A DNA stretch of 64,000 bases from a phage, in the sequence record PZ212788.1, one strand, 5' to 3'. The notes below the pieces were generated by a model that saw nothing but the letters and a program-made list of their open reading frames with translations, did not search any database and was not told where the DNA came from. Positions 2,267 through 23,778 of this stretch are shown here, in pieces; the first letter of the stretch is position 1; each line of letters begins with the position of its first letter. Both the position numbers and the translations under genes were made by a program.

Positions 2267-2267
2267 G

Positions 2268-4900: not shown

Positions 4901-7900
4901 ATGGCTGATATTAAAGTTGTCAGAATTGAATCTCTTCCTGCCACTACCGCAGTGACAGAGGATGATTACCTGGTTGTTCAACAACCAGACCTGACTCGTC
5001 GTGTAAAAATTGGCGATGTTGTCCATGTGGATGGGACTGTTTCTCATGTAATCTCCTTTAAGGAAGGTGGTAAGTTAAACGGCCCAATGGATTTTGCCTA
5101 CTTCGAAGAGGAAGACCTCTACCTGCGTTGGAAAGGCGAATTTCCACACACTGTTCCTGCACTGTCTTCACCGTACTCCGATGGTGGGATTACTGACGCT
5201 GCATGGATGGTATATACAGATCCGTCCTTAAGGGAGGAGCTGGAATCTACTATTGGCGCATCTATGATCATGACAGCCGAAGGGCAGTCTGTCCAGGATG
5301 TGATGGATGTTACGGTTCAGACAGCTAACGATGCTAAAGCACTTGCACAGCGGGTAGATTTTGGTACAGTACATACTGTAGGCGATGTTATTCACCTTGT
5401 CAACTTTGTGGGTCCTGCAGTTATTGAGGAGGGAAGAACCACCAACTACCCTTCCGTAGCAGCTGGTGAAAGATTTCTGAACGGTGTGGTATCTCGTCGT
5501 GATACTACAACTGTTGATGGTATTTTCCGTGGCGCTACCACCGGAGCCATGTACACCATTGCAGTAACCAACGGTGTAGCAACAACGAAAAGAATAGCAC
5601 TTCGTGATGAATTTAAACGCCTAGAGGCAAACAACCCAACAAGAACAGTTATCCGTGCTGGAGATGATTTAAATACGGCAGGGTACTTGCAGCTTGATGC
5701 AACAGGCCGTTGGGGTATGTGGAACCAACAAACAGCTTCGTGGCAACCTCTTGCTATAGAGCAAGGCGGCACAGGGGCTAGAGATGCCGCTGGAGTCCGT
5801 ATCAATATCGGTGCTTTCTATAAGCAACGTGCAGCCCTTGAGCCAAATTTCAATATCAATAACTTGACTGGTAATCAGGATGGTGTATACTATCAGCCAA
5901 TGACTGCTTATGCAACTGAGGCGAATGGTTACCCTGCAGGTTCTGGTGCGGGTCACTTGATTGTTTGGCAGAACAATGCTAACGGCGGTACAGGTTGTCG
6001 TCAGGAATACTATCCATTCTCTAACGTAGATGTTTGGTATTTGAGAACCTATCAGGCCAACACAAATCAGTGGACTGCATGGCAGCCGATGGTCAGACCT
6101 CGTAACGATGATACCTTCAGATCTCATATTGGCCTTGGTAAAAACAACTCGCCAGCCTTCGGGCACCTTTACTTAGCTCAATACTCGGGAGATGTTAAAT
6201 CGGCCTCAGGTATTCTCCATGGAGATAAATATAATACTGACGGTGTCCTTGAGCATGGATATAGGATCTATTCTGAGGTAAGAAACGACAATAAGGCTTG
6301 GTTGACAATCCACCTGCACAAAGGCGCAAAAGGATCTGAAACTCATAGATATTTAGGCTTCCGTGAGGATGGGGTCTTAGATTGTCCTAAATATATGCAG
6401 GTTGGTGATCTGAACGGTCAGATGGCAAACTGGGGACTTGGAGAATGGATCCGCAGTTCAGGAGCAGAAAGAGGTTTCTGGGGATCTAAGAAAGCCGCCA
6501 AGATGGTCATCTGGGATGGCGGTATGGACGAGCAAGGTGAAGGAACGCTTGAGTGGGGTGTTTATAACAACCGGAAAGCCAAATGGGAACCACTACCGAT
6601 AGCTTGTGGTGGTACCAGTGCCAGGACTGTAGGGGATGCTCAAGCACAATTCAGAATCCCTCTGGCAGCAGGTGCTAGACCATATGTAAACCTGCCTAGA
6701 ACTGCAGCTATGCAGGACGGTAAGTATTATCCTATTATCGTCAGAACTGACCCCAACTTTGCAGCAACTATCGGGACAGATTTAACCATTGTCACCAGAT
6801 CTTCTTCTGGCGGCGACCCAATGAACTGTGCTACACTACAGTGTCACTACAGAACTGGTGGCTGGACAGACAGAGGTGATTCTTTCCAAGGGGTTATTAA
6901 TTTCTACCAAAACGAGAAAGCAATCCTCGGATGTGTATCTCCAACCAGAGGTAAGCAGGAGTATGTTGCATTCTATGTAGAGGCACGTGCATTCCCTGTT
7001 ACAGTATATGCTGGCGCTACTGTAATAGAAGTGTCAACCAGGGAGGCTGATTGGCAGGTAGGCAACGTGACAGGTAACCAAGATGGTGTCAAGTTCTGTG
7101 CTCCTCTGGAATCTGCAGATTTGAGTCTTGCAATCAAAGGTGATGATGTAACAAACACCAGACCTCTGGTTGAGTTCAAAGGAACATCAGGTTTCTACAC
7201 TGGTGGTGGAACTATGTGGCACTACCTGGGGACTCCTGAACGCTATGCAGTGATGAGCAAAATGAACATGCCTAAAGTCGAGCTTTGGGCAGACGGTATT
7301 GACTACATTTGTCCTGGTAGTCAGACCACTAGAAAAGCACTGTTCTCTAACGCAGGGTTCCAAGCTGCATCGGAAGGAACAGAGGATCTGATCAACAACA
7401 CCTTTACCTCTAAATGTGGTAATGGTGCAAGACTGCAAGGCCAGGCAGAGTTCAGATCTACTCCGGAAGCTGGTCAAGTTATCGTTCGCGATGTTGTAGG
7501 TACAGCTCATAAGTTCTACAATTTCAACAAAGACGGCACATTTTTCCCTCCTGGAGGCTATGTTTGCCAGACAGGTGCTGACTGGAACAATCAGTTTGGT
7601 AATACAAACCCCTCCAAGATAATGGCTGGCAATGTCAACGGGCCGGAAGGTTCGATGGTTGTTGGTGGACTGTCTGTGGCGTTTTCTGGAAACTATGCTT
7701 TCCAAATGGCTGGTCGCCTTGATCAGTTATACACTAGGTCTATCGAAGGTGGTAACCATAGGGCATGGAACAAGGTTATTCAGCACCGTGGTCAAGGTCT
7801 GGGGACAGAAGACCTTAATGCCTACGATGGTAGCCGTGAAGGTTTCTATCACCAGGGTTCAAACGCTGACGCACTTGTAACAGATCGTCACTACCCTGCT

Positions 7901-8713
7901 CCGTACGCTGGTACACTGCTTGTTTACAAAAACACAGCTAACAGACCTCAAGGTTGTGTGCAGGAATATATCACCTATTTTGGTGACAGATATACTCGTG
8001 CTGGTAACTACGTTGGCGATGTCTTTACTTGGGAAGAATGGAGACACGATGCTGGTAAGGGCATCCAGTTAAGACCTAATTACACTTTTGGTGAAACCAG
8101 TAATCAACTGGAAATTCATATCGGTGCTAATGGTCTTCCCTCCAACGCAGATGGCTTACCTAAGGATGATGCTGTACTCCATTATTGGGGTAACGGCAGC
8201 ACAGGGGATCGTCCAAACGTGTTAGAGTTTAAGGTTCGTGACGAGTCTCAAGCAAATTGGGTATGGCATTGCGGTACCTTGCCGGATAAATCAAGATATC
8301 TTTCTGTAAACGGTGCTGTGAATTGCACATCTGTCAATCAGAGTTCTGACAGAGACCTGAAAGATAACATAGCTGTTATTCCTGATGCGTTAGAAGCTAT
8401 CCGGAAGATGAAGGGTTATACTTACACTCTTAAAGAGAACGGTATGCCTTATGCAGGTGTTATAGCACAAGAGGTGCTTGAAGCGCTGCCGGAAGCAGTT
8501 AGCTCTTTCGTGCAAAGAAAGGAAATCCCAAACCCTGATCAGGATGGAACTCCTTTAGTAACAGAGGAAAGATTCTACAGCGTGGATTACGCAGCCGTAA
8601 CAGGCTTGCTTGTCCAGGTTTGCAGGGAACAGGACGATAAAATAACCGCCCTTGAGGAGCAGGTTAAAAAATTGACAGAGGTTGTTACTGGGTTGCAAGA
8701 GAAACTTAAGTAA
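4901..8713 (+). CDS. long tail fibre with C-terminal intramolecular chaperone (peptidase S74-like) domain
   Basis: 1270 aa; C-terminus ...DLKDNIAVIPDALEAIRKMKGYTYTLKENGMPYAGVIAQEVLEALPEAV... followed by a coiled coil matches the endosialidase/T5 pb1-type autoproteolytic chaperone; N-terminal anchor shared with 1598 ORF. Confidence 0.7.
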   Translation: MADIKVVRIESLPATTAVTEDDYLVVQQPDLTRRVKIGDVVHVDGTVSHVISFKEGGKLNGPMDFAYFEEEDLYLRWKGEFPHTVPALSSPYSDGGITDAAWMVYTDPSLREELESTIGASMIMTAEGQSVQDVMDVTVQTANDAKALAQRVDFGTVHTVGDVIHLVNFVGPAVIEEGRTTNYPSVAAGERFLNGVVSRRDTTTVDGIFRGATTGAMYTIAVTNGVATTKRIALRDEFKRLEANNPTRTVIRAGDDLNTAGYLQLDATGRWGMWNQQTASWQPLAIEQGGTGARDAAGVRINIGAFYKQRAALEPNFNINNLTGNQDGVYYQPMTAYATEANGYPAGSGAGHLIVWQNNANGGTGCRQEYYPFSNVDVWYLRTYQANTNQWTAWQPMVRPRNDDTFRSHIGLGKNNSPAFGHLYLAQYSGDVKSASGILHGDKYNTDGVLEHGYRIYSEVRNDNKAWLTIHLHKGAKGSETHRYLGFREDGVLDCPKYMQVGDLNGQMANWGLGEWIRSSGAERGFWGSKKAAKMVIWDGGMDEQGEGTLEWGVYNNRKAKWEPLPIACGGTSARTVGDAQAQFRIPLAAGARPYVNLPRTAAMQDGKYYPIIVRTDPNFAATIGTDLTIVTRSSSGGDPMNCATLQCHYRTGGWTDRGDSFQGVINFYQNEKAILGCVSPTRGKQEYVAFYVEARAFPVTVYAGATVIEVSTREADWQVGNVTGNQDGVKFCAPLESADLSLAIKGDDVTNTRPLVEFKGTSGFYTGGGTMWHYLGTPERYAVMSKMNMPKVELWADGIDYICPGSQTTRKALFSNAGFQAASEGTEDLINNTFTSKCGNGARLQGQAEFRSTPEAGQVIVRDVVGTAHKFYNFNKDGTFFPPGGYVCQTGADWNNQFGNTNPSKIMAGNVNGPEGSMVVGGLSVAFSGNYAFQMAGRLDQLYTRSIEGGNHRAWNKVIQHRGQGLGTEDLNAYDGSREGFYHQGSNADALVTDRHYPAPYAGTLLVYKNTANRPQGCVQEYITYFGDRYTRAGNYVGDVFTWEEWRHDAGKGIQLRPNYTFGETSNQLEIHIGANGLPSNADGLPKDDAVLHYWGNGSTGDRPNVLEFKVRDESQANWVWHCGTLPDKSRYLSVNGAVNCTSVNQSSDRDLKDNIAVIPDALEAIRKMKGYTYTLKENGMPYAGVIAQEVLEALPEAVSSFVQRKEIPNPDQDGTPLVTEERFYSVDYAAVTGLLVQVCREQDDKITALEEQVKKLTEVVTGLQEKLK

Positions 8714-8720
8714 CTGTTTT

Positions 8721-8750
8721 GCCCTCGCTTCGGCGGGGGCTTTTTGTTTG
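8721..8750 (+). terminator. rho-independent terminator (GC stem with TTCG loop plus T-run)
   Basis: gccctcgc-ttcg-gcgggggc followed by tttttgtttg immediately after the fibre stop codon. Confidence 0.7.
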
Positions 8751-8752
8751 TA

Positions 8753-8781
8753 TTGCGTATTAACTCAAAATCTGGTAAAAT
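8753..8781 (+). promoter_or_regulatory. sigma70-like promoter with extended -10 (TTGCGT-17-TGgTAAAAT)
   Basis: -35 TTGCGT 8753-8758, 17 bp spacer, TGg TAAAAT 8773-8781; same TGnTAAAATA motif recurs at 14284, 20615 and 56290. Confidence 0.55.
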
Positions 8782-8812
8782 AGCTATCATGATTGTTTAA
8801 CCTGGAGGCACA

Positions 8813-9403
8813 ATGTTTTTATGGGAAAGGCCTAGATACCTTCCAGATATTAGATTAGAGCTGCTGGCAGATATTGTTACGTTTAAAAGTCCGTTTACAG
8901 GTAAAACGCAAAAAGTAACCTATGCCACACCTAACTGGAAAGGCACTTTGACGGTCTCCAATATCAGCGAATCCCAGTTGCTAGAGCTTAAGAGCTTTGT
9001 TGATCAGGTGTATAAAGATGGGAACATCTTTCTCATTAAAACTTACGGTCACTCAGTAACAGCTAATGAGCCAATCGCCCTTGGGCCTACTGGTAACGAC
9101 GATTTTTTGAAGACGGTCGGGTGGGAGCCAAACAGAGACATAGCCAGAGCTGGAGATAAAATATCTGTCAATGATGAATTGAAAGTGGTAACAGCTCCAG
9201 TGCGTAGTGATGGTGTTGGGTCTGCTGTTATAGGCATATCTCCAAGACTTAGAAAACCTATTGCCGCAGGGGACACCATGAAGATAATAACTCAATCTCC
9301 GAAGGGTAGGTTTCATATCAGAGATATTTATAAAATTAAGCAAAAAGTCGATGCTATGCAAAAAGGTGATAATATAGTTATCAACTTCTTTGAGGATTTC
9401 TAA
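8813..9403 (+). CDS. minor tail protein (possibly lambda gpM-like)
   Basis: 196 aa; FLW...TLTVS...LLELKSF segments loosely resemble lambda gpM; first gene after promoter, upstream of K-like and J-like genes. Confidence 0.3.
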   Translation: MFLWERPRYLPDIRLELLADIVTFKSPFTGKTQKVTYATPNWKGTLTVSNISESQLLELKSFVDQVYKDGNIFLIKTYGHSVTANEPIALGPTGNDDFLKTVGWEPNRDIARAGDKISVNDELKVVTAPVRSDGVGSAVIGISPRLRKPIAAGDTMKIITQSPKGRFHIRDIYKIKQKVDAMQKGDNIVINFFEDF

Positions 9404-9404
9404 G

Positions 9405-9956
9405 ATGATCAGAGCGCCATTAGATAATTTATTTCTTGAAAAGCTGGAGCTTGATGGTGTTGAGATCTTAATTGCTGCAAAGCTGGAGCTACCGACAGGA
9501 ACTGTCAGGGTGTGCTCAGGCACTGGTGTTGTAGTAATTGAGGGGCAACATTTTATAGGGATAGGTGGATCAGCAACATTGACCGCTGTGTCTGAGAAAG
9601 ATGCCACCAACTTCGGATCTGTGGTAGCAACATTGAACGGGTTTGATCCTAAGTATGTAGGTGATCTGCTGAAGACGGAGTATTCTGGTTGTCGTGCCAC
9701 GTTGTACATTACCGCTATGGAGAATGGTTTGCCTGTTACAACTAATGGCTTGTTTGACGGACTTATAACAGATATGGCTATTCAGACAGGCGAGAATAGT
9801 GCTTTGTCCATATCCATCTCTTCCATCTTCAACAGCTGGTTAAGAGGTTTTCCTTATCGGTACACGGAGGAAAGCCACAGCTCAAGAAACGATAACGACA
9901 GATTTTTTAAATATGTGGATCAGGTGGCGAGCCGCCCGATCATTTGGGAGGTTTAA
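9405..9956 (+). CDS. minor tail protein (tail-tip assembly position, L-like by context)
   Basis: Start trimmed to ATG 9405 directly after upstream stop; positional analogue only, no sequence signature recognised. Confidence 0.3.
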   Translation: MIRAPLDNLFLEKLELDGVEILIAAKLELPTGTVRVCSGTGVVVIEGQHFIGIGGSATLTAVSEKDATNFGSVVATLNGFDPKYVGDLLKTEYSGCRATLYITAMENGLPVTTNGLFDGLITDMAIQTGENSALSISISSIFNSWLRGFPYRYTEESHSSRNDNDRFFKYVDQVASRPIIWEV

Positions 9957-10381
9957 TGAGCACACACCCTCGTTTAGTGGATTGGCAAGAAAGATTGTGG
10001 AAAGTGTTTGACGAAGAGGCCACCATACCTTTTGAATGGGGATTCCACGATTGTTGCACCTTTGCAGCTAAGTGTGTTGATGCCCAATACGGAACAGATT
10101 TTCTTTCTAACTTTGAAGGAACGTATAAAACAGAGTTGGAAAGCAAGAGATGGTGCATGCTTCATTTCAAAACCACACATCTGCCCACTATTTTTGATTT
10201 CTTTATGACTCGACTGGACACTCCTAAACAGGTTCAGCGTGGTGATATTGTTATTTTCGAAGGCCTGAACGGGCTCACCGCTGGTGTGTTCTGGAACAAC
10301 CAGATTTGGGCGAAAGGGGATAAAGGGGTCTTTATGTTCGACATGAAAGATTCTATCGTTGTTGATGTCTGGAGGTATTAA
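9956..10381 (+). CDS. NlpC/P60-like tail assembly protein (lambda gpK C-terminal domain-like)
   Basis: FHDCCTF (catalytic Cys context) and downstream GDIVIFEG resemble NlpC/P60 motifs; start trimmed to ATG 9956 with GGGAGG RBS; TAATG coupling to J-like gene. Confidence 0.5.
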   Translation: MSTHPRLVDWQERLWKVFDEEATIPFEWGFHDCCTFAAKCVDAQYGTDFLSNFEGTYKTELESKRWCMLHFKTTHLPTIFDFFMTRLDTPKQVQRGDIVIFEGLNGLTAGVFWNNQIWAKGDKGVFMFDMKDSIVVDVWRY

Positions 10382-13300
10382 TGCCAATTGCAATGATTGA
10401 TAACATCGTTGCTTCTGCAAGATCTTCAAGTTATGACTGGAACGCATCCAAGGCAGCTCTGGCTGACAGCCTGAACACTGTTACCACCAGAACTCTGGAT
10501 AAGATTTTTGAGGGCAACAAATCTTACAGAAGTCAGCAAGATAGACAAAAGCTTCTCAGATCTTCTGCTGCACCTTGCTCTGTAGTGTATGGGAAGACAC
10601 GCACATCTGGATTACTTGCGTTTTTGGAGCAGGACAGGGACAGGACCCTCCATTGTGCTATTGTTCTTGCCAATCATCCCCTGGAAGGTATAGAAGATAT
10701 ACTCATCGACGGTAATCCTATTTCCTCGTATGGAGATTTGATATCGTGGGAGCTACATAACGACAGAAAAACATCTGATCCTTTCATGGGTACACACTGC
10801 CCGTCGTGGTCACCAGACATGATAGGTAGAGGGATCAGTTGGCTACGTGCCAGCTTCAGGTTTGACCCTAACAAGTTCCCTTTTGGGTTGCCAAACGTTA
10901 CACTCGTCAAGGTTGGTAAAAAATGCTATGATCCTCGTATCAGTAAAGAGGTGTATACCAATAACGCGGCCTTGGTGATTCTAGACTATTTAAGAACGTA
11001 CCTTAAATGTCCTGACGAAACCATCAACTGGGAGTCCTTCAAGGAGGCTGCTAACATATGCGATGAGGCGGTAAGAAACGCGGACGGAACTAGTGAGCGC
11101 CGTTACACCATTAATGGTGAGTTCGATATGGATGAGGCCCCAGCAAGTATTATGGCAGAAATGCTGAAAGCTTGTGGTGCAGATCTCAGCTATGTAGCTG
11201 GTAAGTATGGACTGCTGGTAGGTGCATATTATGGTCCGGCAACAATGACACTGAGTGAGGACTGTGTCTGTGGTGAGGTTAAGATCTATCCGGAAGCCTC
11301 GTTTGACAAAAGATCCAACACAATAACTGGCAGATTCACCAGTCCGACTAAAGGGTATTCTGAAACAGATTTTCCATCAGTATTTGTCCCAGAGTGGATA
11401 GAGAAGGATGGAGAAAGAAAGATAATCGATATAGACTACCGCTTTGTTACCAGTCCTTACCAAGCTCAGCGTGTTTCTGCAATCTTCTTAAGACGTGCTA
11501 GAGCTGGCAGGATTATTGAAGTCACCTGCAATATGCGAGGTTTTAAATTTAAGCCTGGTAGTTACGTTACAATGGACCTTCCAAGTATTGGTATAGTGGG
11601 CCAAGAAATGAGGGTTCTTGAGTGGGAGTTCACTAAAAAGGGTGGTGTTAAGGTAAAACTTCGCCAAGATGCTAAAGAGTGGAATGATGCCACAGGGCAA
11701 CTTCCTGATTCCGGCGATGTAGATATTCCGATATCCCCGTCCGGTGTAGCTCAACCGCAAAACTTCAGATACTCCGTTCTCCAAGCTGGGGAAGTAACTC
11801 ACGGTGTTTTGGCTTGGGACAACGTTGGAACTTACGCTCAAAATATTGTGCAGGTAAGAAAGAACGGAGAGATTGTTTGGACAGCACAGACAGTTGAGCA
11901 GTTTGTCCGAGTAGAAGGCTTGACCAAAGGGTCATACACAGCAACCGTGGTTGCAACATCTTATAAAGGTGGTGTATCTCCAGAAGCCTACTGCGAGTTC
12001 AACATTCAAGCACCTGAAGCTCCTGTTTCTGTAGAAGTTAAGCAGGGATACTTTGCTATCACCTTGATTCCGCATAGTAGGGATTTAGCAAGTGTTAGCA
12101 CCCAGTATGACTTTTGGACATCCGGTATGACAAGGTTGCCAGACACCAGTGATGCAACCGTTACTTCAAAAGCCACCCGTATGGGTGTTGGTTCAACTTG
12201 GACATCTGAAGGTCTGCAGAACGATAAGATTTATTATTGGTATATTAGAACCACAAACGCTTTTGGTAGTTCTCAGTTTGTAGAATGCGCTGCACGCTGC
12301 TACACCTCTATTGAGGATTTGATGCCTCAGATAGATGCTGAATTCAAAAAGACAGAAACTTATAAAGAGTTGATGAGTACTTTGGATTCCTCTATTGAAG
12401 AGGTTGAAAATCGTGTCACAGAACTTAACAGGTACATGGATGGTAGGGTAGATGAAGCGTTCCAGCAACTTGGGGACAGAATAGGTGCGGTAGTTACAGA
12501 AACAACTCAGAAGTTTGAAGATGTCAATGGTAACATTACAGCGCTGGATAGGAAACTTGTTGCTGCACAGAACAAATTCACCAACGATCTGAACACTGAA
12601 AGTGGCAGACTGGCATCTCTGATCGAGACAACCAATAAAGCAACTACTGATCTTCTGAACAAAAAGACAGAGGCTTTAGATGAGAAATTGGTTGCCGCCA
12701 AAGGTGAGCTGGTAGAGCAGATAGAGGGAGTTGAGAGCGGGTATTTAGCCGGAGATAAAACTCTGGATGGTAAGATCAATACTCAGAGAACAGAACTTGA
12801 CGCAAGCATCTTGAGCACTAACCAGGCAACTGTGGATCTTTTGAACAGGACATCTGAAACTCTGGATCAAAAGATCAGTCAGACAAACGCGACGGTATCT
12901 AAAAACTATACCACCCTGGATGGCAAGATAACCACCGCAAAAACTGACCTCAACACCTTGATTGCCAATACCAACAAGGCCACCACTGACTTGTTGAATC
13001 AGAAAACATCTGCACTGTCAGAGCAGATAACTTCTGCACGTGGGGAGATTTCTACCAACAAGCAGGCGATTGATGCTTTGGATGGAAAACTGACTTCCAC
13101 AAAAACAGCGCTGGATGCTACAATTTCCGATACCAACAAAGCTACTGTGGACCTTATCAACGGCACAGCGTCAGCTATTCGTCAAGAACTTGCTGTTGCT
13201 AAGCAGGAGATCATTGATGATGTTGGGGATGTGTCCGAAATCAGGGCTGCAGTAGCTACAACATCTAAGGCTGTAACCGACTTAGAGGGTAAAGTAAATG

Positions 13301-14220
13301 CTCAATGGGGCACAAAAATACAGGTAGACTCCGCAGGGAATAAATATGTTGCAGGTATCCAGTTGGGGATGGAAGGGTCTGGAGGCCAAGTTCAATCCTA
13401 CTTCATGGTTAGTGCAAACAATTTTGCGGTATACAACCCTGGAAATGGAACAGCAACCCTTGCTTTCGCAATCAAGAACAACCAAGCGTTCTTGAAAGAT
13501 GCTTTTATAGAGAACGGGACGATTTCATCTGCCAAGATCGCACAAGAAATTTCGTCAAACAACTACGATGGCAACGGGTACCATAAATACGGTTGGTATA
13601 TTAACAAGAACGGGCACGCCCAATTTATGGATGTATGGGTGAAAGGCAACATCAACGCCAGTTCTGGTAACTTCACAGGGGCAGTTAACGCCACTAGTGG
13701 TACCTTCCGTGGGGATGTTTATGCCAATAATGGTAGCTTTAGGGGCACCATAGATGCAACTGGAGGTACCTTCCGTGGACGTGTAGAAGCTTCCGTTATC
13801 CGTGCTAACCAGTTCGAAGGTGCAATCGTTGCACATAGGACCTACGGTGACTGTTCTCCAGTGTACAACTCGCAGCAAAGGGTTTGCCGTTGGAGGTGGA
13901 GATATGTGGACAACGTGCAAGGCCAAGGTAAGAACGTAACATTCTTCTTTAAACTGAATGGTACTCTTGCCAGCTCACAACTGAATGCATGGATAGCTGG
14001 TCATCAGATCCTTGCTGGCAAGAAGTATTTTAACGACAACAACGGCATGTGTGCGGTAGGGATAACAGGTCTGGGTGAACAAACTATAGACATTGTTATC
14101 GAGATTTACACACCGTGGTCAACGTCTAGCGTGACAGGTGTCACAATCTCCTGTCCTACTGTGATCGTTAGTCGTTCTAACTCAAGCTTCCAGGGACCTT
14201 GGAACGAGTCTCACGACTAA
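10381..14220 (+). CDS. central tail fibre / host specificity protein, lambda gpJ-like
   Basis: 1279 aa; colinear matches to lambda J (YFAITLIPH vs YFQITATPH; YYWYIRTTNAFGSSQFVE vs YYFYIRSVNTVGKSAFVE; KYVAGIQLGMEG vs HYVAGIGLSMED; SYFMVSANNFAVYNPGNG vs SQFLVAANRIAFIDPANG). Confidence 0.8.
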   Translation: MPIAMIDNIVASARSSSYDWNASKAALADSLNTVTTRTLDKIFEGNKSYRSQQDRQKLLRSSAAPCSVVYGKTRTSGLLAFLEQDRDRTLHCAIVLANHPLEGIEDILIDGNPISSYGDLISWELHNDRKTSDPFMGTHCPSWSPDMIGRGISWLRASFRFDPNKFPFGLPNVTLVKVGKKCYDPRISKEVYTNNAALVILDYLRTYLKCPDETINWESFKEAANICDEAVRNADGTSERRYTINGEFDMDEAPASIMAEMLKACGADLSYVAGKYGLLVGAYYGPATMTLSEDCVCGEVKIYPEASFDKRSNTITGRFTSPTKGYSETDFPSVFVPEWIEKDGERKIIDIDYRFVTSPYQAQRVSAIFLRRARAGRIIEVTCNMRGFKFKPGSYVTMDLPSIGIVGQEMRVLEWEFTKKGGVKVKLRQDAKEWNDATGQLPDSGDVDIPISPSGVAQPQNFRYSVLQAGEVTHGVLAWDNVGTYAQNIVQVRKNGEIVWTAQTVEQFVRVEGLTKGSYTATVVATSYKGGVSPEAYCEFNIQAPEAPVSVEVKQGYFAITLIPHSRDLASVSTQYDFWTSGMTRLPDTSDATVTSKATRMGVGSTWTSEGLQNDKIYYWYIRTTNAFGSSQFVECAARCYTSIEDLMPQIDAEFKKTETYKELMSTLDSSIEEVENRVTELNRYMDGRVDEAFQQLGDRIGAVVTETTQKFEDVNGNITALDRKLVAAQNKFTNDLNTESGRLASLIETTNKATTDLLNKKTEALDEKLVAAKGELVEQIEGVESGYLAGDKTLDGKINTQRTELDASILSTNQATVDLLNRTSETLDQKISQTNATVSKNYTTLDGKITTAKTDLNTLIANTNKATTDLLNQKTSALSEQITSARGEISTNKQAIDALDGKLTSTKTALDATISDTNKATVDLINGTASAIRQELAVAKQEIIDDVGDVSEIRAAVATTSKAVTDLEGKVNAQWGTKIQVDSAGNKYVAGIQLGMEGSGGQVQSYFMVSANNFAVYNPGNGTATLAFAIKNNQAFLKDAFIENGTISSAKIAQEISSNNYDGNGYHKYGWYINKNGHAQFMDVWVKGNINASSGNFTGAVNATSGTFRGDVYANNGSFRGTIDATGGTFRGRVEASVIRANQFEGAIVAHRTYGDCSPVYNSQQRVCRWRWRYVDNVQGQGKNVTFFFKLNGTLASSQLNAWIAGHQILAGKKYFNDNNGMCAVGITGLGEQTIDIVIEIYTPWSTSSVTGVTISCPTVIVSRSNSSFQGPWNESHD
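12530..13230 (+). repeat. intragenic tandem repeats (about 42 aa / 126 bp period) encoding a coiled-coil insert in the J-like fibre
   Basis: Recurring units ...LDGKI.T..T.L......TN.AT.DLLN..T..L...I... at least four times; not present in lambda J. Confidence 0.55.
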
Positions 14221-14227
14221 CCTTTAA

Positions 14228-14255
14228 AGCCCCGCTTCGGCGGGGTTTATTTTTA
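14228..14255 (+). terminator. rho-independent terminator (same family as 8721)
   Basis: agccccgc-ttcg-gcggggt followed by ttatttttat after the J-like stop. Confidence 0.7.
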
Positions 14256-14263
14256 TGCTCAGA

Positions 14264-14292
14264 TTGACTATTGTTACAAAATTTGGTAAAAT
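14264..14292 (+). promoter_or_regulatory. sigma70-like promoter with extended -10 (TTGACT-17-TGgTAAAAT)
   Basis: -35 TTGACT 14264-14269, spacer 17, TGG TAAAAT 14284-14292; near-identical spacer/-10 to promoter at 8753. Confidence 0.6.
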
Positions 14293-14325
14293 ACCTTGTA
14301 GAGATTTTCATACCGGAGGAGTGAC

Positions 14326-15816
14326 GTGGCTAAGTATGGATTGACAGAGGCTGGTTTCGTTATACCAACCCTAAATGACCTAATCGTTGAAACTAAGCAA
14401 AGCCTGATCCGTGCTTTTGGCGAAAACTTCAACGTACAGAGTAACTCCGTTGCAGATAAGCTGACCACTATCTTCAACGAGCGAGAGTATCAACTTATTC
14501 TTATGGCAGCATCTGTATACGCATCACAGACGCTGTATGGGGCAGAAGGTATCTACCTAGATGAGCTTCTTGGAAGACAGGGTATTTACCGAAGAGGCCG
14601 TTCTAAATCATCAGGTACCTGCCAGTTGACAATCAACACAACTGTGCCGTACAATATGATTTATGATTCCAAAACTTATACGCTGGACAGTGGCAACTTT
14701 GTTCTTAGCAACGATGTGCAAGTAGCAGGGAATCTTATTGCTCACAGAATAAATGCTCCAGACCTAAGGATTGGGAAATACAACTTCCAAATTACCAACC
14801 AGACAGATGGAAGTATCAAAACAAAAAGTCTGGTTTTAACAGATAAGTCTCTGGACTCTTCTGATTTGCCAAGCTTTTACGGAGAGATTAAGCAATTCAT
14901 TGTCGATAATACAACCCTGTTGAACGACGATTTGATTCAGGTCGATATGTTGACAGGAACGTTGTGGATAGGGTACAATTCGAATCTTGATCAAGTTGGA
15001 CTTAATAGTAGAGTAGATTTCAGAGTATCCCCGATTGTAGGGGAAAGAACTATCACCCTGGATGTTATCGCTAACGAGGCTGGTGAGCTGTCAAGAGAGG
15101 CAGAAACCGTGACAACAATGTCACCTACTCCCAGTGGATTTATCAAGCTTACCAACCGAGAAAGATTCAACGAGGGCAGGGATGTTGAGAAAGATTCCGA
15201 GTATCGCTTAAGAGCTTCCAGCACAAAACAGTTAACATCGAAGGCTACCCGTCCTGCAATCCTTAGCGCTGTAAGCGAGGTGAAAGGTGTTGAGAAAGTG
15301 AGAGTGTTCTCCAACAACACTGATAAAACTGATGCTAAAGGTATACCTCCTTACAAGTTCCAAGTGGTTGTGTTTGGTGGTGCAACGGAGGACATTTGCC
15401 AAGCACTTTACCAAACTATAGCCTGTACGAACAGGACTTATGGTAATATTTTCTACGATGTCACTACATCTGACGGTCAAACTGAAAGAATTTATTACTC
15501 CAAGGCAAATACCTACCGCCTAGATGTAAGAATTACCTATTCCGGCGCTGCGCTTTCCACAACCGAAAAAGATGCCATTGTAGAGGCTCTTTTGCAGGTT
15601 GTTAACGGACTGGATGTTGCAGATACGTTGTACAATATCCAATTGGTCGGTGCTGCATCCGCTGCTGTGTCGATAGGTAGATTTAATAGACTGGTAATTC
15701 AAGTTAAACCAGTAGGAGCTTCTGATGAAGCTTACACTACAAACGATATTGTTGCGAACATGACCGAGGTGTTTGACCTCGACGAAAGTAATATAACTTT
15801 CCAACAAACTATTTAA
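14326..15816 (+). CDS. baseplate J-like (gp6/P2 gpJ-like) wedge protein
   Basis: 496 aa; GTG start with GGAGGA RBS; domain order and C-terminal beta-rich segment resemble Baseplate_J proteins; assignment by motif impression only. Confidence 0.4.
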   Translation: MAKYGLTEAGFVIPTLNDLIVETKQSLIRAFGENFNVQSNSVADKLTTIFNEREYQLILMAASVYASQTLYGAEGIYLDELLGRQGIYRRGRSKSSGTCQLTINTTVPYNMIYDSKTYTLDSGNFVLSNDVQVAGNLIAHRINAPDLRIGKYNFQITNQTDGSIKTKSLVLTDKSLDSSDLPSFYGEIKQFIVDNTTLLNDDLIQVDMLTGTLWIGYNSNLDQVGLNSRVDFRVSPIVGERTITLDVIANEAGELSREAETVTTMSPTPSGFIKLTNRERFNEGRDVEKDSEYRLRASSTKQLTSKATRPAILSAVSEVKGVEKVRVFSNNTDKTDAKGIPPYKFQVVVFGGATEDICQALYQTIACTNRTYGNIFYDVTTSDGQTERIYYSKANTYRLDVRITYSGAALSTTEKDAIVEALLQVVNGLDVADTLYNIQLVGAASAAVSIGRFNRLVIQVKPVGASDEAYTTNDIVANMTEVFDLDESNITFQQTI

Positions 15817-15827
15817 GGCGGCGAGAT

Positions 15828-16514
15828 ATGGCAGAGATTAAGTCGGATGTTAACCACATCCACACTCTGCCAGATTTTGTTCAGGGAGGTCTTGACTACC
15901 TGCCTGGAGATTTTCTGGCTGAGAAGGTTAATTTAGTCACATTCTTAACCGTATACCTTAAAAGGTTGGAGGATGTTGATAAGATGCTGGTAGGTTTGGC
16001 TGAAGGAAGATTGCTTAACAATGCCAGCGGAAGATACCTTGACGAAGTTGGTAATCAACTTGGTATTCTTAGGAATGGACTTTCAGATGCTGATTTTCGT
16101 GCCACACTAATTATTCAGCAGGCCGCAGCATCAAGGGGCGGGACTCGCGAAGATGTCATCTCCACCTTGCGACAATTGTTCGGAAGAGACAATTTCGATA
16201 CGTGGAAAGGAGACAACTTCAGGTTTGACATAAATATTAGAAAAACTTGCTTTGACATATTGCAGTCTATCGATCAGATCTTAGATATGCTACCATTGCC
16301 TTGTCATTTGCGTCTTACAGAATCGCAAGGGCAAGCTTTTGGTTTTGAAGGGGACTCTACAGCTCTTGGCTTCGGATCAGTATGGGAAGAAAACCAGTTT
16401 GGAGTTGGTGGGCTGGCTACTTTGCTGTATGTTCCTGACGTAAGACCTGATTGGGACACCACAACCATTTATTGTGAAAGTATTACAGTAAACGCAACTA
16501 GACAGGAGGGTTAA
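15828..16514 (+). CDS. tail/baseplate protein (gpI-like position)
   Basis: 228 aa ORF following J-like baseplate gene; no recognisable signature. Confidence 0.3.
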   Translation: MAEIKSDVNHIHTLPDFVQGGLDYLPGDFLAEKVNLVTFLTVYLKRLEDVDKMLVGLAEGRLLNNASGRYLDEVGNQLGILRNGLSDADFRATLIIQQAAASRGGTREDVISTLRQLFGRDNFDTWKGDNFRFDINIRKTCFDILQSIDQILDMLPLPCHLRLTESQGQAFGFEGDSTALGFGSVWEENQFGVGGLATLLYVPDVRPDWDTTTIYCESITVNATRQEG

Positions 16515-18586
16515 TGGCAACAGCTGTTTTTAAACCTTACCGTGATTACTCTACAATGGCTGCACGGTTTCATTACCGAACAGTTCAGGATACTGCCGTT
16601 CCTGGTAGGGATTATGATCATGTTGAGGGCGATGTAACTATCCCAGTTGGGGCAACCAGTATTGAGATCCCCGTGGAAATTGTTGACAAATTACCCAACA
16701 GGTTGCCAAGAAGCTTCTTTATGGAGTTTTCATCAAAATCTCAAGGGGTGATGATTGGAACACAAAGGGCGAAATGTACAATAGTTTCAGATGAGAATCT
16801 TGACAGGATATCTTGGGATACTGTTGAGGAGAGAATGTTTCACCCAAGATATTGGGTTACAACCACTCAGCAGACTGAAAGTACCTGTATTGTTGCAGAT
16901 AACAACTGTTGTATTAACCGTTTAGTGTCAAGAACATATGGAGGTATGGCTGGGTGCATTTGGGAAACAGTTGACAAGTATGACCATTTCGGTATTGGGT
17001 TTGATGATCACTATGAGATGAGAAACACCAAGCTTTGGTTCAGAATGTCAATAACCAATGCCAGCAACTTCTCCACCCCTGAAAAGATGATTATGACTGT
17101 AGACCTTGTTGATGGCACAATCATCTATGTTCCTTTAGCTCAATATGCTGTCAGCATCTCAGAGGATAAGAATGTTGCAGAGATTCATATTGATTTCGAG
17201 GACTGCGTCGGGATGGATCAGAACAACAACATGATGGGTGTTGATCCTCGACAGGTGAGAAGGATTTTAATACCGCTTATGCCTAAAGACTGGGTAAGTA
17301 ATAGCACAGACCCGAGAACGGAAAATGTAGAGTGTGAGTTGCGCCTAGATCTGCTCCAGCCAGACACAGGCTGGAAAATGATGCAACTTAACAATATTCA
17401 GGTTAAAGAGCACGACGTTGGGATCTGCACCGCATATGACGATATGTGGAACGTATCTCCTTTAAGGGTGTTGAACAATATCAAGCGTCTGGGCTATACC
17501 GGAACCATAAACCATTATGTTGGTATGAGTCATTATTATGACTACACATGGTCAGGAACCCAATGGTCTATAAACAGAACAGGGGCGCTAAACGCTGCAG
17601 CTTATAAATGGCATGATGATTTTATGTACAATGCCAAACGACATAACTTCGACGTTATGCAATCTGTAAGTTTTGAGCTTTTCAGCGATGCCTGCCCGTT
17701 GGAATGGACCCAAAGAGACTGGAACGATAACTACGCTAAAACAGGGTATACACCCTGTAGCTACCTCCTGTCTCCAACCATTGAAGAGGGTATGAATTTC
17801 CTTACTGCAGTATTTAAGAATTTTGCATCAGCCGCTATGAGAAACAACCTGCCAGTGATTATGCAGGTTGGTGAACCGTGGTGGTGGTACAATACCGATA
17901 CTCGTAGACCTTGTATTTATGATTACCCTACAAAGCAGGCGTTTTATGATGAGACAGGTGAGTATGCATTAGATATTGGGACTATTGACGATCCTAAAAC
18001 TGGCGGTGTTTACGACAAGTATGTAGCATTTTGTCGTGGTAAGCTTGGCGCTCGTATTGCGGCTATTTCAAAGGCAATAAAGGCACACGCTGCATCAGCT
18101 CAGATGACAGCTTTGCTGTTTTTCCCAACCATCATGGAAACCGAGCTTACGCAAAAGCTGAACCTTGCTGACCAATATAAAAAGGAAGCAGGTGCTCTTG
18201 ATTTCTTCTGCACCGAGTGCTACGATTGGGTGATGCAGGGAGGTATTGAAAAGGCAAAAGAGTCTGTAAACATACCTATCGTTAAGTTAGGTTGGCAACC
18301 GTCTGAAATACAATACCTTGCAGGGTTCGTTCCTAGTAAAGAGCTTGCTCCGGTATATGGCTACGACCCAACCAGGAATTACCAAGAATTTTTATGGAGA
18401 TGTATCTGCGGAAACATGGCAACCATAGAGTATAGATACCCTGAGGTAAAACAGTATGTGTGGGCATACCCGCAAGTAATGTCTGACAGCATCACTGTTA
18501 CAGCCAGAGATTCTACCGTGCTTCATATGGGGCAGGTTGCTCTGAAAGGGTATGTAGAAGATGTTGTCCCTCCAGACTTCTCATAA
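16514..18586 (+). CDS. tail-associated protein with possible glycoside hydrolase (TIM-barrel-like) domain
   Basis: 690 aa; central region with FELFSDACP ... MQVGEPWWWYNT patterns reminiscent of acid/nucleophile strands of clan-A glycosidases; translationally coupled in tail operon. Confidence 0.35.
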   Translation: MATAVFKPYRDYSTMAARFHYRTVQDTAVPGRDYDHVEGDVTIPVGATSIEIPVEIVDKLPNRLPRSFFMEFSSKSQGVMIGTQRAKCTIVSDENLDRISWDTVEERMFHPRYWVTTTQQTESTCIVADNNCCINRLVSRTYGGMAGCIWETVDKYDHFGIGFDDHYEMRNTKLWFRMSITNASNFSTPEKMIMTVDLVDGTIIYVPLAQYAVSISEDKNVAEIHIDFEDCVGMDQNNNMMGVDPRQVRRILIPLMPKDWVSNSTDPRTENVECELRLDLLQPDTGWKMMQLNNIQVKEHDVGICTAYDDMWNVSPLRVLNNIKRLGYTGTINHYVGMSHYYDYTWSGTQWSINRTGALNAAAYKWHDDFMYNAKRHNFDVMQSVSFELFSDACPLEWTQRDWNDNYAKTGYTPCSYLLSPTIEEGMNFLTAVFKNFASAAMRNNLPVIMQVGEPWWWYNTDTRRPCIYDYPTKQAFYDETGEYALDIGTIDDPKTGGVYDKYVAFCRGKLGARIAAISKAIKAHAASAQMTALLFFPTIMETELTQKLNLADQYKKEAGALDFFCTECYDWVMQGGIEKAKESVNIPIVKLGWQPSEIQYLAGFVPSKELAPVYGYDPTRNYQEFLWRCICGNMATIEYRYPEVKQYVWAYPQVMSDSITVTARDSTVLHMGQVALKGYVEDVVPPDFS

Positions 18587-18598
18587 TCAGGAGATAAA

Positions 18599-19639
18599 AT
18601 GTCAAAACCTAGTTTTCCATTAGAGATTTGGGCAGAGGAGGATCAGGTTCTGCCTAACACCCACAGACAGAACAGGCTACGCCCGATTGATGATTTGTGG
18701 AGAAAAGGTTGGGATCTTGGTCAAAAGCCATCCTGTGAAGAACTTAACTATATTTTCAATATGCTCGGAACTTGGGCAAAATACATTGCTGACGAGCAGA
18801 TCCCCGCTCAAGAAGGCCGTTATCTGGTACGTGATAATAACTTGAGCGATCTTTTGAACATCCCTGTTGCCCGTAGAAACCTTGGGATTATCACTAAGGA
18901 AGAGGCAGACGCCAGGTATGTAAAAGTTACAGGTGATACAATGACAGGCCCCTTGGGGTTGCAACGTATCAACTTTAAAGCTGCCGAGACAGATAAGGCT
19001 TGGATAGAGACAACTATTGGCCCAGATAAGACAACTCTCGACTTTGGGTTAAGTGATAATACCGGGTCGTTTGATGATGGTGGTACATCTACAGTAGATG
19101 CGTTTCGTTGGAGATTCCAGCCAACTCAGCCGGATATTAATCCAGAGTTCACTTTGATGTACCTTAACGCGATCACGGCTAATCGTGCGCTGTTGAAAGT
19201 GGTAGGCAATGTTGAAGTTGTCGATAACATGAGGTGCAATAACCTTACTATCAGCAATACAGCAACATTCACCAACTGTAATGTGGCTAGTCAGTTGACG
19301 GCTGGGTCAGTATATGTTAATGGTGGTGCAAGTTGTGACAGTATGGTTGTAAGAAGCCAGCACTGTGTTGTCGGTAACAGAAATGTGGTGCGCTCCGTGA
19401 ATGGAGTGACGGCTAACGGTAACGGTGATGTAACGATCACTATCCCGCAGACAGGTGTGCAAGACATCAGAATCGGTGCAAGACTTGTGGACGGCGTTTC
19501 TGAATCTCCAATCCGCAACGGCTACGTTGTCACAGGCTGGCATTTCGGTGACAAAAAAGAGATGCGTGGTTCAACCTACTGGGCAGGACCTTTACAAAAA
19601 CTTGTAAATGGTCAATGGATCACTGTTAATTATGCATAG
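18599..19639 (+). CDS. tail fibre protein (paralogue A)
   Basis: 346 aa; N-terminal ~200 aa and C-terminal YWAGPLQKLVNGQWITVNYA shared with 20654-21697; followed by a Tfa chaperone gene. Confidence 0.6.
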   Translation: MSKPSFPLEIWAEEDQVLPNTHRQNRLRPIDDLWRKGWDLGQKPSCEELNYIFNMLGTWAKYIADEQIPAQEGRYLVRDNNLSDLLNIPVARRNLGIITKEEADARYVKVTGDTMTGPLGLQRINFKAAETDKAWIETTIGPDKTTLDFGLSDNTGSFDDGGTSTVDAFRWRFQPTQPDINPEFTLMYLNAITANRALLKVVGNVEVVDNMRCNNLTISNTATFTNCNVASQLTAGSVYVNGGASCDSMVVRSQHCVVGNRNVVRSVNGVTANGNGDVTITIPQTGVQDIRIGARLVDGVSESPIRNGYVVTGWHFGDKKEMRGSTYWAGPLQKLVNGQWITVNYA

Positions 19640-19653
19640 ATCGGAGGACTAGC

Positions 19654-20238
19654 ATGAAAATACTTCAAGAGTTTAAACTTTACCAACCGGGATCTGGCGA
19701 ATACCACTCCAACAAGGAAACCAAGGAGCTGACCCCTCAAGAGGTCGAGGATTACACCGCATACACTGGGTATTTTTTACGTAATGATGATGGTGATTGG
19801 TATGTGCAGTCACGAACATTACGACAAGAAAATCCAGGGTGTATCTTCCTACTTGTTGACGAGAAGGGAATTCTTAAGACATCTACAGAAGAACCTGATG
19901 CCTTATGGCCTGCTCCAGGTCTTCGTGTGGTTATCGCCAAAAAAGAAGAGGTACCAGAAAACATTATGCTTCACCACGACGCTTTGCGTTTAGTTGGTGA
20001 TGAATTTGTCACAGACAATGAATTCTTTGTTCAACAGGCAGAGGGTGTCATAGAGACAGAACTTGCTTGGGCTACTGCTAGAATTGGTGCCTATCAAGAC
20101 ATGATTGACCTTGAATATGATCTTACTGATGACCAGAAACGTAACATCAGAGATTTGAAAATGTACAGGGTAAAACTTCTTGAAATAGATACATCTAAAG
20201 CCCCTGACATTTTCTTCCCGGAGCGACCTACCCTCTAA
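19654..20238 (+). CDS. tail fibre assembly chaperone (Tfa/gpG-like)
   Basis: C-terminus ...DLKMYRVKLLEIDTSKAPDIFFPERP matches the conserved tail-fibre-assembly protein C-terminal motif (KxYRVxLxxxDxSxAPDIxWPxxP). Confidence 0.7.
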   Translation: MKILQEFKLYQPGSGEYHSNKETKELTPQEVEDYTAYTGYFLRNDDGDWYVQSRTLRQENPGCIFLLVDEKGILKTSTEEPDALWPAPGLRVVIAKKEEVPENIMLHHDALRLVGDEFVTDNEFFVQQAEGVIETELAWATARIGAYQDMIDLEYDLTDDQKRNIRDLKMYRVKLLEIDTSKAPDIFFPERPTL

Positions 20239-20249
20239 GAGGAGGTGTT

Positions 20250-20564
20250 GTGGAGTTGGATTTGGCGGCATTGTACGGTATCTGCATGGGTACCGTTGTC
20301 CCGATCTGTGTATGGGCTTTCAACCAGTGGCACACCAAATGGAAAGGCATTTCCAAGAGGTTGGATGAGCTGGAGAAAGACCTCATCTTAGTGAAAAACA
20401 GTATGGTTACAAAAGATAGACTTGATTCCGTTATCGAGACTCGGTTAAGCAAGCTAGAGGCCGATATTAACGACCTTAAGCAGGATGTCAGGACAGATGT
20501 CTCCGGCATCCGAGCTGATGTACAAAAGATTTTGCACATGCTCGTAGAGCATAGTAAAAGGTAA
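20250..20564 (+). CDS. membrane-anchored coiled-coil protein (holin- or spanin-like candidate)
   Basis: 104 aa; hydrophobic N-terminal helix (ALYGICMGTVVPICVWAF) then charged heptad-like region; GAGGAGG RBS. Confidence 0.3.
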   Translation: MELDLAALYGICMGTVVPICVWAFNQWHTKWKGISKRLDELEKDLILVKNSMVTKDRLDSVIETRLSKLEADINDLKQDVRTDVSGIRADVQKILHMLVEHSKR

Positions 20565-20572
20565 ACAAAGGT

Positions 20573-20607
20573 CAGAACGGAAAGGACTCCGTTCTTGCAT
20601 TTTGTTC
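20573..20607 (+). terminator. rho-independent terminator
   Basis: cagaacgg-aaaggact-ccgttcttg followed by cattttgttc. Confidence 0.55.
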
Positions 20608-20623
20608 TCTAAAGTGTTAAAAT
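20595..20623 (+). promoter_or_regulatory. sigma70-like promoter with extended -10 (TTGCAT-17-TGtTAAAAT)
   Basis: -35 TTGCAT 20595-20600 overlapping the terminator stem; TGt TAAAAT 20615-20623; shares TAAAATAG with other promoters. Confidence 0.5.
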
Positions 20624-20653
20624 AGTCCTAAGGAATTTTCTCAGGAGAACGTG

Positions 20654-21697
20654 ATGACTAAACCAGTTATCCCTCTTGATATTTGGGCCAATCAGGATGT
20701 TGTGCTTGAAAATACGGGAGAGTTGAATAAGTCTCAACCAAAAAAAGAAGAGAGATTGAAAGGTTGGGATATGACACAAAGAATGGCATGTGAAGTTGTT
20801 AACTTTGAACTTCACATGCTTTCTGCGTGGTTGAAGCATTTAACAGAAGATGTTGTCCCAGGATGGGATAATAGATTCTTAAAGGTCACTAATAATCTAG
20901 CAGACGTTCCAGACAAAGCTGCTGCACGTCAAGTTCTCAATGTATACTCACCTGAAGAAATGGACGATCTATATGTTGACAAGTCTGGAGACATAATGAC
21001 TCAGACTCAAACTTTAGGTCTCCAAAGAATCGAGTTTGCATCTGCGTCAACAGACAGTGCGGCAATATATACCACCATAACGCCAGACAAGACGACGATG
21101 GATTTCTGGATTATGGACAACATCGGTGGTGCTGACGGCACAGACCTTGATGATCCTTCTCACCAAATAGACGGGTTCCGTTGGAGATTTCAACCTTCTG
21201 GTGGGCAGCCTGTGTTTTCGGCTATGAAGCTCAATGCTATAACTGCCAACCGTGCAAGACTGGCTATCCAAGGAAATCTTGAATGCAACGATGCAAAAAG
21301 TTCCTCTGCAAATGCCAATGCGGTCACGATACCAAGAGCCACTGTTAACGGACAACAATCCTGCGGAAGCGCTCAAATAGGTGGAAGAGTTGATTGTAAC
21401 GATGAAACCGTTAGAGGCCAATATGCAACCGTTGGTGGAAGAAACGTGGTCCGCAGGGTAAACGGTAACAGCGCAGACGGTAGTGGTAACCTTACTGTCC
21501 CTATGCCCAGTAGAGGGGTTGACGATGTAAGGATAGCAAACCGTTTCAAAACCACCTACAGAGAGTCAAGAGTCTACCCTGGACATGTGATGTGCTCTGG
21601 TAACTACGCTTATAAACACCCTTATCAAGGTGATTACTGGACAGGTGCTATCCAAAAACTTGTAAACGGTCAATGGATCACTATATCTTATGCTTAA
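20654..21697 (+). CDS. tail fibre protein (paralogue B)
   Basis: Start trimmed to ATG 20654 (AGGAGA RBS); N-terminus and C-terminal YWTGAIQKLVNGQWITISYA homologous to 18599 ORF, central region divergent. Confidence 0.6.
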   Translation: MTKPVIPLDIWANQDVVLENTGELNKSQPKKEERLKGWDMTQRMACEVVNFELHMLSAWLKHLTEDVVPGWDNRFLKVTNNLADVPDKAAARQVLNVYSPEEMDDLYVDKSGDIMTQTQTLGLQRIEFASASTDSAAIYTTITPDKTTMDFWIMDNIGGADGTDLDDPSHQIDGFRWRFQPSGGQPVFSAMKLNAITANRARLAIQGNLECNDAKSSSANANAVTIPRATVNGQQSCGSAQIGGRVDCNDETVRGQYATVGGRNVVRRVNGNSADGSGNLTVPMPSRGVDDVRIANRFKTTYRESRVYPGHVMCSGNYAYKHPYQGDYWTGAIQKLVNGQWITISYA

Positions 21698-23730: not shown

Positions 23731-23739
23731 TATATCTAA

Positions 23740-23765: not shown

Positions 23766-23778
23766 TCTGGAGAACACA

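Follow-up and report, generated by a model that had tools for sequence, protein, structure and literature searches.

The 64,000-nucleotide (nt) stretch of phage DNA analysed here (record PZ212788.1; this whole stretch is called the window) carries three late intergenic modules, at 8721-8782, 14227-14293 and 20574-20624, in which a terminator-like hairpin is directly followed by a promoter-like sequence with a conserved extended -10 element (TGnTAAAATA). Judged from sequence and conservation, these are probably genuine sigma-70-type promoters and terminators, and the best explanation of their arrangement is that the terminator-promoter modules split the ~50-kb late (virion) gene cluster into sub-operons. 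The observation is correct but already known from the 2013 paper on phage rV5 (Kropinski et al. 2013, PMC3606486): the same sites appear there, so the promoter class is not new. New here are the synteny in six genera and the TAAAAT preference, together with the -35 TTG at a fixed 17 base pairs (bp), the T and purine before the TG (TRTG) and the pairing with terminators; the rV5 paper aligned the -10 region only, and the -35 TTG, the TRTG, the conservation across the subfamily and the terminator pairing were unreported there.

The window is from a Vequintavirus, an rV5-like Escherichia coli myophage. Megablast of positions 8000-21000 gave phage EduardKellenberger as the best match (97.6%) and matched 124 phage records, 111 of them with at least 80% query coverage and 90-99% identity, nearly all Vequintavirus; identity to Vequintavirus genomes was 97-98%. 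According to the EduardKellenberger annotation, positions 1-29400 hold the baseplate and tail-fibre genes of the late cluster, on the + strand throughout. Next come a minus-strand block (29454-36222) and, from 36257, a + strand block with replication, rII-like and small early genes. Gene calls for the window were mechanical.

Probable terminator-promoter modules in the late gene block

Intergenic DNA makes up just 2.3% of the late + strand block (1-29450), where only three gaps reach at least 50 bp: 8714-8812, 14221-14325 and 20565-20650. Each of them has a hairpin and then the motif TGNTAAAATA, located 31-36 nt upstream of a start codon. Exact copies of TGNTAAAATA were found at four window positions (8773, 14284, 20615 and 56290), each intergenic and on the + strand; shuffling predicted 0.87 copies, and none of 100 shuffles reached four. 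Within the late block, three of the four TGnTAAAAT matches were intergenic (binomial P = 5e-5). The promoters in the window are intergenic, upstream of a gene and in the same orientation as that gene. Hairpin and promoter modules had been described for these three regions in an earlier note on this DNA, and the excess of the motif and its intergenic placement bore them out. Each of the four window sites has a TTG-type -35 at 17 bp.

The first module follows the gene for a 1270-amino-acid (aa) tail fibre. Its terminator (8721-8749, + strand; t041 in rV5) reads GCCCTCGC-TTCG-GCGGGGGC followed by TTTTTGTTT, and the hairpin (8721-8740) has a folding energy of -16.9 kcal/mol (z score -4.3). The promoter (8753-8782, + strand; P040 in rV5) has the -35 TTGCGT (8753-8758), a 17-bp spacer, TG (8773-8774), the -10 TAAAAT (8776-8781) and an A at -6. 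The next gene, which matches phrog_1302 (distal tail protein), starts at 8813.

The second module, after the gene for a 1279-aa tail fibre, begins with a terminator (14227-14256, + strand) that reads AAGCCCCGC-TTCG-GCGGGGTTT followed by ATTTTTAT and is absent from the rV5 terminator table (hairpin 14227-14248, -16.5 kcal/mol, z -3.5). Its promoter (14264-14293, + strand; P036 in rV5) has the -35 TTGACT (14264-14269), a 17-bp spacer, TG (14284-14285), the -10 TAAAAT (14287-14292) and an A at -6. It matches at 10 of 12 hexamer positions and has the TG as well, its site is syntenic in six genera, and it precedes a baseplate wedge gene with a GTG start at 14326.

In the third module the hairpin (20574-20595, -16.0 kcal/mol, z -4.3) belongs to a weaker terminator (20574-20605, + strand; AGAACGGA...TCCGTTCT followed by TGCATTTTGT), with four G-C pairs, a loop of 6-8 nt and an interrupted T-run (TGCATTTTGT) overlapping the -35 at its 3' end. 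The promoter (20595-20624, + strand; P030 in rV5) comprises the -35 TTGCAT (20595-20600), a 17-bp spacer, TG (20615-20616), the -10 TAAAAT (20618-20623) and an A at -6, and is followed by a tail-fibre gene starting at 20651 or 20654. The GC-rich hairpin with T-run that the earlier note ascribed to every module fully describes 8721 and 14227 and only partly 20574, and the “nearly identical” spacer (caaaat.tggTAAAATa) is shared by 8773 and 14284 but not by 20615, which has ctctaaagTGTTAAAATA. The -10 TAAAAT of all four window sites matches TATAAT at five of six positions, including A-11 and T-7.

Conservation of the modules in the Vequintavirinae

The late clusters of Mydovirus Seu621, Henunavirus pEa_SNUABM_56, Seunavirus FENT2, Avunavirus Av-05 and Certrevirus F1M1E were compared, with Plateaulakevirus PAc and phi92 as outgroups; the rest of rV5 was also taken in. 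At each Vequintavirinae locus, late intergenic DNA was enriched for TGnTAAAAT (P from 0.012 to 5e-5). In six genera (Vequintavirus, Mydovirus, Henunavirus, Seunavirus, Avunavirus and Certrevirus), the baseplate wedge gene and the post-tape-measure gene each have a hairpin plus TGnTAAAATA module in front of them, at syntenic sites whose flanking sequence has diverged; upstream of the neck/tail-completion gene, the same six genera have the promoter alone, with no terminator. Before the baseplate wedge and post-tape-measure genes, a G+C hairpin of the UUCG type or similar, together with a T-run, was located directly upstream of the promoter in all six, and the T-run frequently abuts or overlaps the -35. 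It could be speculated that this terminator T-tract, at about -36 to -47, doubles as an UP-like element.

As for the outgroups, the motif was absent from the syntenic sites of Plateaulakevirus PAc. In phage phi92 (Stephanstirmvirinae) one TTGACA-18-TGATAAAATG follows the tape-measure gene (locus L005, position 7809), syntenic with the post-tape-measure promoter of the Vequintavirinae; the other late gaps of phi92 were without the motif.

Twenty-eight sites, picked by TGnTAnAAT and location only, were aligned on the TG. The features that follow played no part in picking them. The spacer was 17 bp in all 28; T was present at -35 and -34 in 27 and G at -33 in 23 (the rest T), and positions -30 to -28 were A or T only. 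T was found at -17 in 19 sites and a purine at -16 in 26, fitting TRTGn. A was found at -6 in 21 of the 28 and at +1 in 20. The -35 of the baseplate promoter has degenerated to TTTATA or TTTTAA in three genera, with TGnTAAAATA kept, which points to the extended -10 as the core of the element. A test of the hexamer that is independent of how the sites were chosen gave the same picture: among TGnTAnnnT matches, TAAAAT accounted for 28 of 49 in late intergenic DNA and TATAAT for none, whereas in coding DNA TAAAAT made up 14 of 294. TAAAAT is thus genuinely preferred, and more narrowly than sigma-70 alone would require.

Intergenic enrichment, co-orientation with genes, synteny in six genera and the TAAAAT preference together sustain the proposal of the earlier note that a defined promoter class is paired with terminators in the late operon. 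They leave hardly any room for the idea that TGnTAAAATA arose by chance or from base composition in a gene-dense, AT-rich genome, or that it acts in 5' leaders at the RNA level or in translation. That idea could appeal to the relaxed motif TGnTAnAAT, which is frequent within genes, with a strand bias of 19:1 along the coding strand (19 + strand and one minus-strand match in the whole window, every + strand match other than the four promoters lying within a gene); this bias tracks the coding strand and is no promoter signal. It could also appeal to the generic sigma-70-like matches in 1-20000, which showed no excess over shuffles (32 vs. 35.3 expected). The strict motif, however, has three of its four late-block matches in the 2.3% of the sequence that is intergenic, its synteny extends across six genera despite diverged flanks, and it is correlated with a -35 TTG that was not used for site selection. 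The distance from motif to start codon varies from ~27 to ~52 nt among orthologues, as expected for a promoter but not for an element tied to a ribosome-binding site. A known RNA element in the leaders was also considered, and no family was matched when the whole window was scanned against Rfam at gathering thresholds. Chance or composition was rejected by the shuffles, the intergenic enrichment, the synteny and the hexamer preference.

Proposed recognition by host RNA polymerase and alternative factors

In its full form the module consists of an intrinsic terminator (a G+C-rich UUCG-type hairpin and a U-tract) and, directly after it, a promoter with a TTGnnn -35, a 17-bp spacer, (TR)TGn, TAAAAT, A at -6 and a purine at about +1. 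With the extended -10 promoters of E. coli sigma-70 (TGn/TRTGn) these promoters share the TG one base 5' of TAnnnT, A-11 and T-7, the 17-bp spacer, a partial -35, the T and purine before the TG and a purine ~7 nt past the hexamer; they differ in that the hexamer is nearly always TAAAAT followed by A, and never TATAAT in late intergenic DNA. Under the favoured explanation, the terminator would stop most, but not all, of the transcripts coming from upstream, and host RNA polymerase with sigma-70 would re-initiate after this leaky terminator. The TG would be read by region 3.0 of sigma-70, TAAAAT by region 2.4 and the -35 TTG, which is partial, by region 4.2. Expression would in this way be set separately for every group of tail, baseplate and fibre genes, and genes lying behind a terminator that no promoter follows, like that of the 1875-aa fibre (23779), would be made by read-through only.

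About 59 of the 83 open reading frames (ORFs) of the window, itself about half of the genome, were scanned against PHROGs or Pfam for phage-encoded regulators. No sigma, anti-sigma 4, gp55, gp33, MotA or AsiA-like family was found among these ~59 proteins, and most of the early proteins belonged to families of unknown function. The sole transcription-related match was an Srd-like protein (35179-36222, minus strand), with phrog_4592 (“decoy of host sigma70”, 3e-13) and phrog_1400 (“Srd anti-sigma factor”, 4e-9). It is the protein called an Srd homologue (gp11) in the rV5 paper (PMC3606486), but an HNH-endonuclease PHROG matches it far better (3e-110), which makes the anti-sigma assignment weak.

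That the sites are T4-type late promoters, TAAAATA (cf. TATAAATA) being read without a -35 by a diverged, gp55-like phage sigma, is very improbable. The T4 late promoters (TATAAATA; dependent on gp55, gp33 and gp45) also have an AT-rich extended -10-type element upstream of virion genes, the motif described here is confined to late genes, and A follows the hexamer in 21 of the 28 sites; this superficial likeness was remarked on by the rV5 authors, who likened their TggTAaAAtA to the T4 late consensus (PMC3606486). Yet only five of eight positions match TATAAATA when the 3' ends are aligned, and the invariant TG at -15/-14 and the -35 TTG at a fixed 17 bp are hallmarks of recognition by a group-1 sigma. 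T4 late promoters have no conserved TG or -35 element. Homologues of gp55, gp33 and gp45 were found neither genome-wide in the rV5 paper (PMC3606486) nor among the ~59 window proteins. The replication genes, which include a family A polymerase and a DnaB-like helicase, also speak against a T4-type system. They are presumably T7-like, with no sliding clamp that would link late transcription to replication. The T4-like late promoter was rejected on anatomy (the TG, the -35 TTG and the five-of-eight match).

A T4 middle promoter was considered too, since several -35 elements read TTGCTT or TTGCAA and might recall a MotA box, and was set aside: the TGCTT would sit ~3 bp upstream of the usual position of the MotA box, and no MotA or AsiA family was found among the scanned proteins.

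The host polymerase might instead be modified, a phage factor disabling -35 recognition or remodelling sigma-70 (an AsiA-type anti-sigma acting on region 4, or a co-activator); the early TTGACA promoters would then be shut off and the TGnTAAAATA promoters would stay active or be activated, giving the early-to-late switch. This is unlikely, though far less so than a T4-type sigma. Extended -10 promoters resist T4 AsiA. The window has two distinct promoter classes (early, with an invariant TTGACA and a variable -10; late, with a weak -35, an invariant TGn and TAAAAT(A)), the baseplate -35 has decayed in three genera where TGnTAAAATA was kept, TATAAT is absent from late intergenic DNA, and an Srd-like protein is encoded on the minus strand; the rV5 authors had raised the same idea (PMC3606486). 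On the other hand, no AsiA, MotA or other RNA polymerase-binding family was present among the ~59 proteins scanned, the Srd-like protein resembles an HNH endonuclease far more closely, the TT(G) of the -35 at exactly 17 bp in 27 of the 28 sites suggests that region 4.2 is still used, and every ordinary determinant of a sigma-70 extended -10 promoter is present at the sites. It is equally doubtful that TGnTAAAATA with a degenerate -35 forms a dedicated late code, common to all Vequintavirinae and read by a factor-remodelled sigma-70 holoenzyme; such a factor would be without sequence similarity to AsiA, MotA or gp55, and the exclusion of TATAAT would be its signature.

Several points weigh against the favoured sigma-70 explanation. 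P036 (TTGACT-17-TGG-TAAAAT) looks able to fire on naked DNA at once, and such strength would be awkward for strictly late expression unless the promoter were held back early. The absence of TATAAT and the near-invariant TAAAATA go beyond the needs of sigma-70 and leave room for an added factor. Orthologous sites among the 28 aligned are not statistically independent, and the screen for regulators covered the window, half of the genome. A literature search found no transcription start site mapping, RNA-seq, in vitro transcription or 3'-end mapping for any of the Vequintavirinae, so promoter activity, timing and terminator efficiency are inferred; the lone match pairing “Vequintavirus” with transcriptomics concerns a T5-like phage.

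Early-type promoters and the site at 56290

Early-region promoters of the window combine an A-tract with an invariant TTGAC(A) and a varied -10 (TATAGT, TACAAT, TATTAT, TAAGAT or TATAAT); TAAAAT occurs in none of them. The difference between this type, with its A-tract, invariant TTGACA and variable -10, and the late promoters may underlie the temporal switch, which in these phages operates without a known sigma or anti-sigma factor. An early promoter AAAA(N3-4)TGTTGAC(N17-19)TATAAT, sigma-70-like and predicted by MEME, has been reported for Certrevirus (Buttimer et al. 2020, Antibiotics 9:352). It is conserved within that genus of the Vequintavirinae and resembles the A-tract and TTGACA promoters of the window, but with its strong -35, UP-like A-tract and location in early/middle regions it belongs to another temporal class than the late sites. 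The late TGnTAAAATA class, not described in that work (Buttimer et al. 2020, Antibiotics 9:352), is present in Certrevirus F1M1E.

The fourth copy of the motif, at 56290, belongs to a separate sigma-70-type promoter of the early/middle region (56270-56299, + strand; TTGTAA, 17-bp spacer, TGC, TAAAAT, A), which precedes genes matching phrog_7310 and phrog_4477 (function unknown) and is not in the rV5 tables. The earlier note had counted it as a recurrence of the same -10; the motif is indeed exact, but the site is in the early/middle region, inside an inverted repeat, and is not part of a terminator-promoter module. In other genera, the gene orthologous to the one after 56290 has an A-tract and a TTGACA-17-TAAGAT or TATGAT promoter, and grouping of 56290 with the late class was rejected by its context and by these orthologous early-type promoters.

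The -10 hexamer of this promoter lies between the arms of the inverted repeat 56281-56311 (AGAAGGGGA...TCTCCTTCT). An inverted repeat also surrounds the orthologous -10 in three of the five other genera, with arms of differing sequence (aaacggg/acccgtt in Seunavirus, aaagggg/acccctt in Mydovirus and gcgaagag/ctcttcgc in Henunavirus), which suggests that the structure, and not an operator sequence, is what has been conserved.

Relation to the rV5 predictions

The rV5 authors put the upstream regions of late genes 27-66 through MEME and obtained eight copies of “TggTAaAAtA” (Kropinski et al. 2013, PMC3606486); the promoters are given in Virol J 10:76, Additional file 4, Table S4. The rV5 genome is 97-98% identical to the window. 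Three putative late promoters of that table, P040 (TTAACTTAAAATCTGGTAAAATAACTATC...), P036 and P030, correspond to the window sites 8773, 14284 and 20615, and its terminators t041, t028, t026/27, t003, t232 and t213 to 8721, 23738, 29419, 40386, 47085 and 58590, respectively (PMC3606486). The hairpins at 14227 and 20574 are missing from the rV5 tables, as is the promoter at 56290.

The practical value of these results is small, in that they confirm and slightly sharpen published promoter and terminator predictions for rV5-like phages, a group in wide use in phage therapy and biocontrol. The refined consensus TTGnnn-17-(TR)TGnTAAAATA with an upstream terminator, syntenic in six genera, allows better annotation of the Vequintavirinae, and the three intergenic fragments are well-defined material for first transcription work in this subfamily.

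The remaining 48 kb of rV5 had no intergenic TTG-17-TGnTAAAATA site; nearest to the class was TTGACA-16-TGATAAAATT, in a “non-coding” box of the rV5 map. Three other rV5 sites deserve mention. For P048 (locus L006, reverse complement, position 23942) the paper placed the -10 at TGTTGTAAAAA, and the present alignment places it at TGATACAATA, 20 nt downstream, where TTGTAA-17-TGA-TACAAT-A fits the class better; this placement is supported by the orthologous sites of five other genera, four of which have TTGTTT-17-TGATAAAATC. P064 (TTGCCA-17-TGG-TACAAT; 57941-58016, L006 reverse complement ~10975-11070) is upstream, not downstream, of terminator t064ABC, whose hairpin begins ~20 nt past the predicted start site of P064; either the arrangement is attenuator-like or P064 is no promoter. 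A full class match, TTGCAA-17-TGA-TAAAAT-A, was found at ~56330 of rV5 (L006 reverse complement, position 12671), in the annotated overlap of gp64 and gp63 and ~30 nt before an in-frame ATG with a GGGGA ribosome-binding site; this could be an internal promoter, and the annotated start of gp63 may be too early.

Other terminators and proposed read-through

A further terminator of the late block (23738-23768, + strand; t028 in rV5) reads AACCGCTCC-TGAC-GGGGCGGTT followed by TTCTTAT (-14.9 kcal/mol, z -4.0). Its hairpin, 23738-23759, ends 19 bp before the gene for the 1875-aa lateral tail fibre (23779-29406), the last and largest of the block. No promoter lies between them, so this gene is apparently transcribed by read-through only, and the read-through control suggested in the earlier note is plausible here. 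The late block is closed against the convergent minus-strand block by a bidirectional terminator (29419-29446, both strands; t026/t027 in rV5).

Three more + strand terminators are located beyond the late block: 40386-40409 (t003 in rV5), which reads CCCCGC-TTCG-GCGGGG followed by ATTTTCTA and has the stem-loop core of the 14227 terminator, and the GAAA-loop terminators 47083-47112 (t232, -21.2 kcal/mol) and 58590-58617 (t213, -19.1 kcal/mol). Exact copies of CCCGCTTCGGCGGG are present at 14231 and 40387, and the copy at 8724 differs by one mismatch; the 22-nt GAAA-loop hairpin GCCCTGCCCGAAAGGGTGGGGC is identical at 47085 and 58590; the “verbatim” recurrence claimed for these terminators is therefore true of the stem-loop cores but not of whole terminators. 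All seven hairpins (8721, 14227, 20574, 23738, 40386, 47083 and 58590) are stable G+C-rich stem-loops (-14 to -21 kcal/mol, z -2.6 to -4.3) that begin 7-14 nt past a stop codon (8713, 14220, 20564, 23730, 40372, 47078 and 58574/58581, respectively). A U-tract is located right 3' of the stem at 8741, 14249, 23760, 47107 and 58612, and is only partial at 20596 (TGCATTTTGT) and 40402 (ATTTTCTA).

Additional observations

Eighteen “Campylobacter phage” records (MG0656xx, host C. jejuni) were ~97% identical by megablast to this E. coli Vequintavirus, which looks like host mis-assignment or contamination in these deposits. In the rII-like region, two ORFs come after a rIIA-like gene (40919-42901): one of 193 aa without a PHROG match (42912-43493) and then one of 192 aa (43539-44117) that matches rIIB families at their C-terminal end only; the latter may be a split or strongly shortened rIIB.

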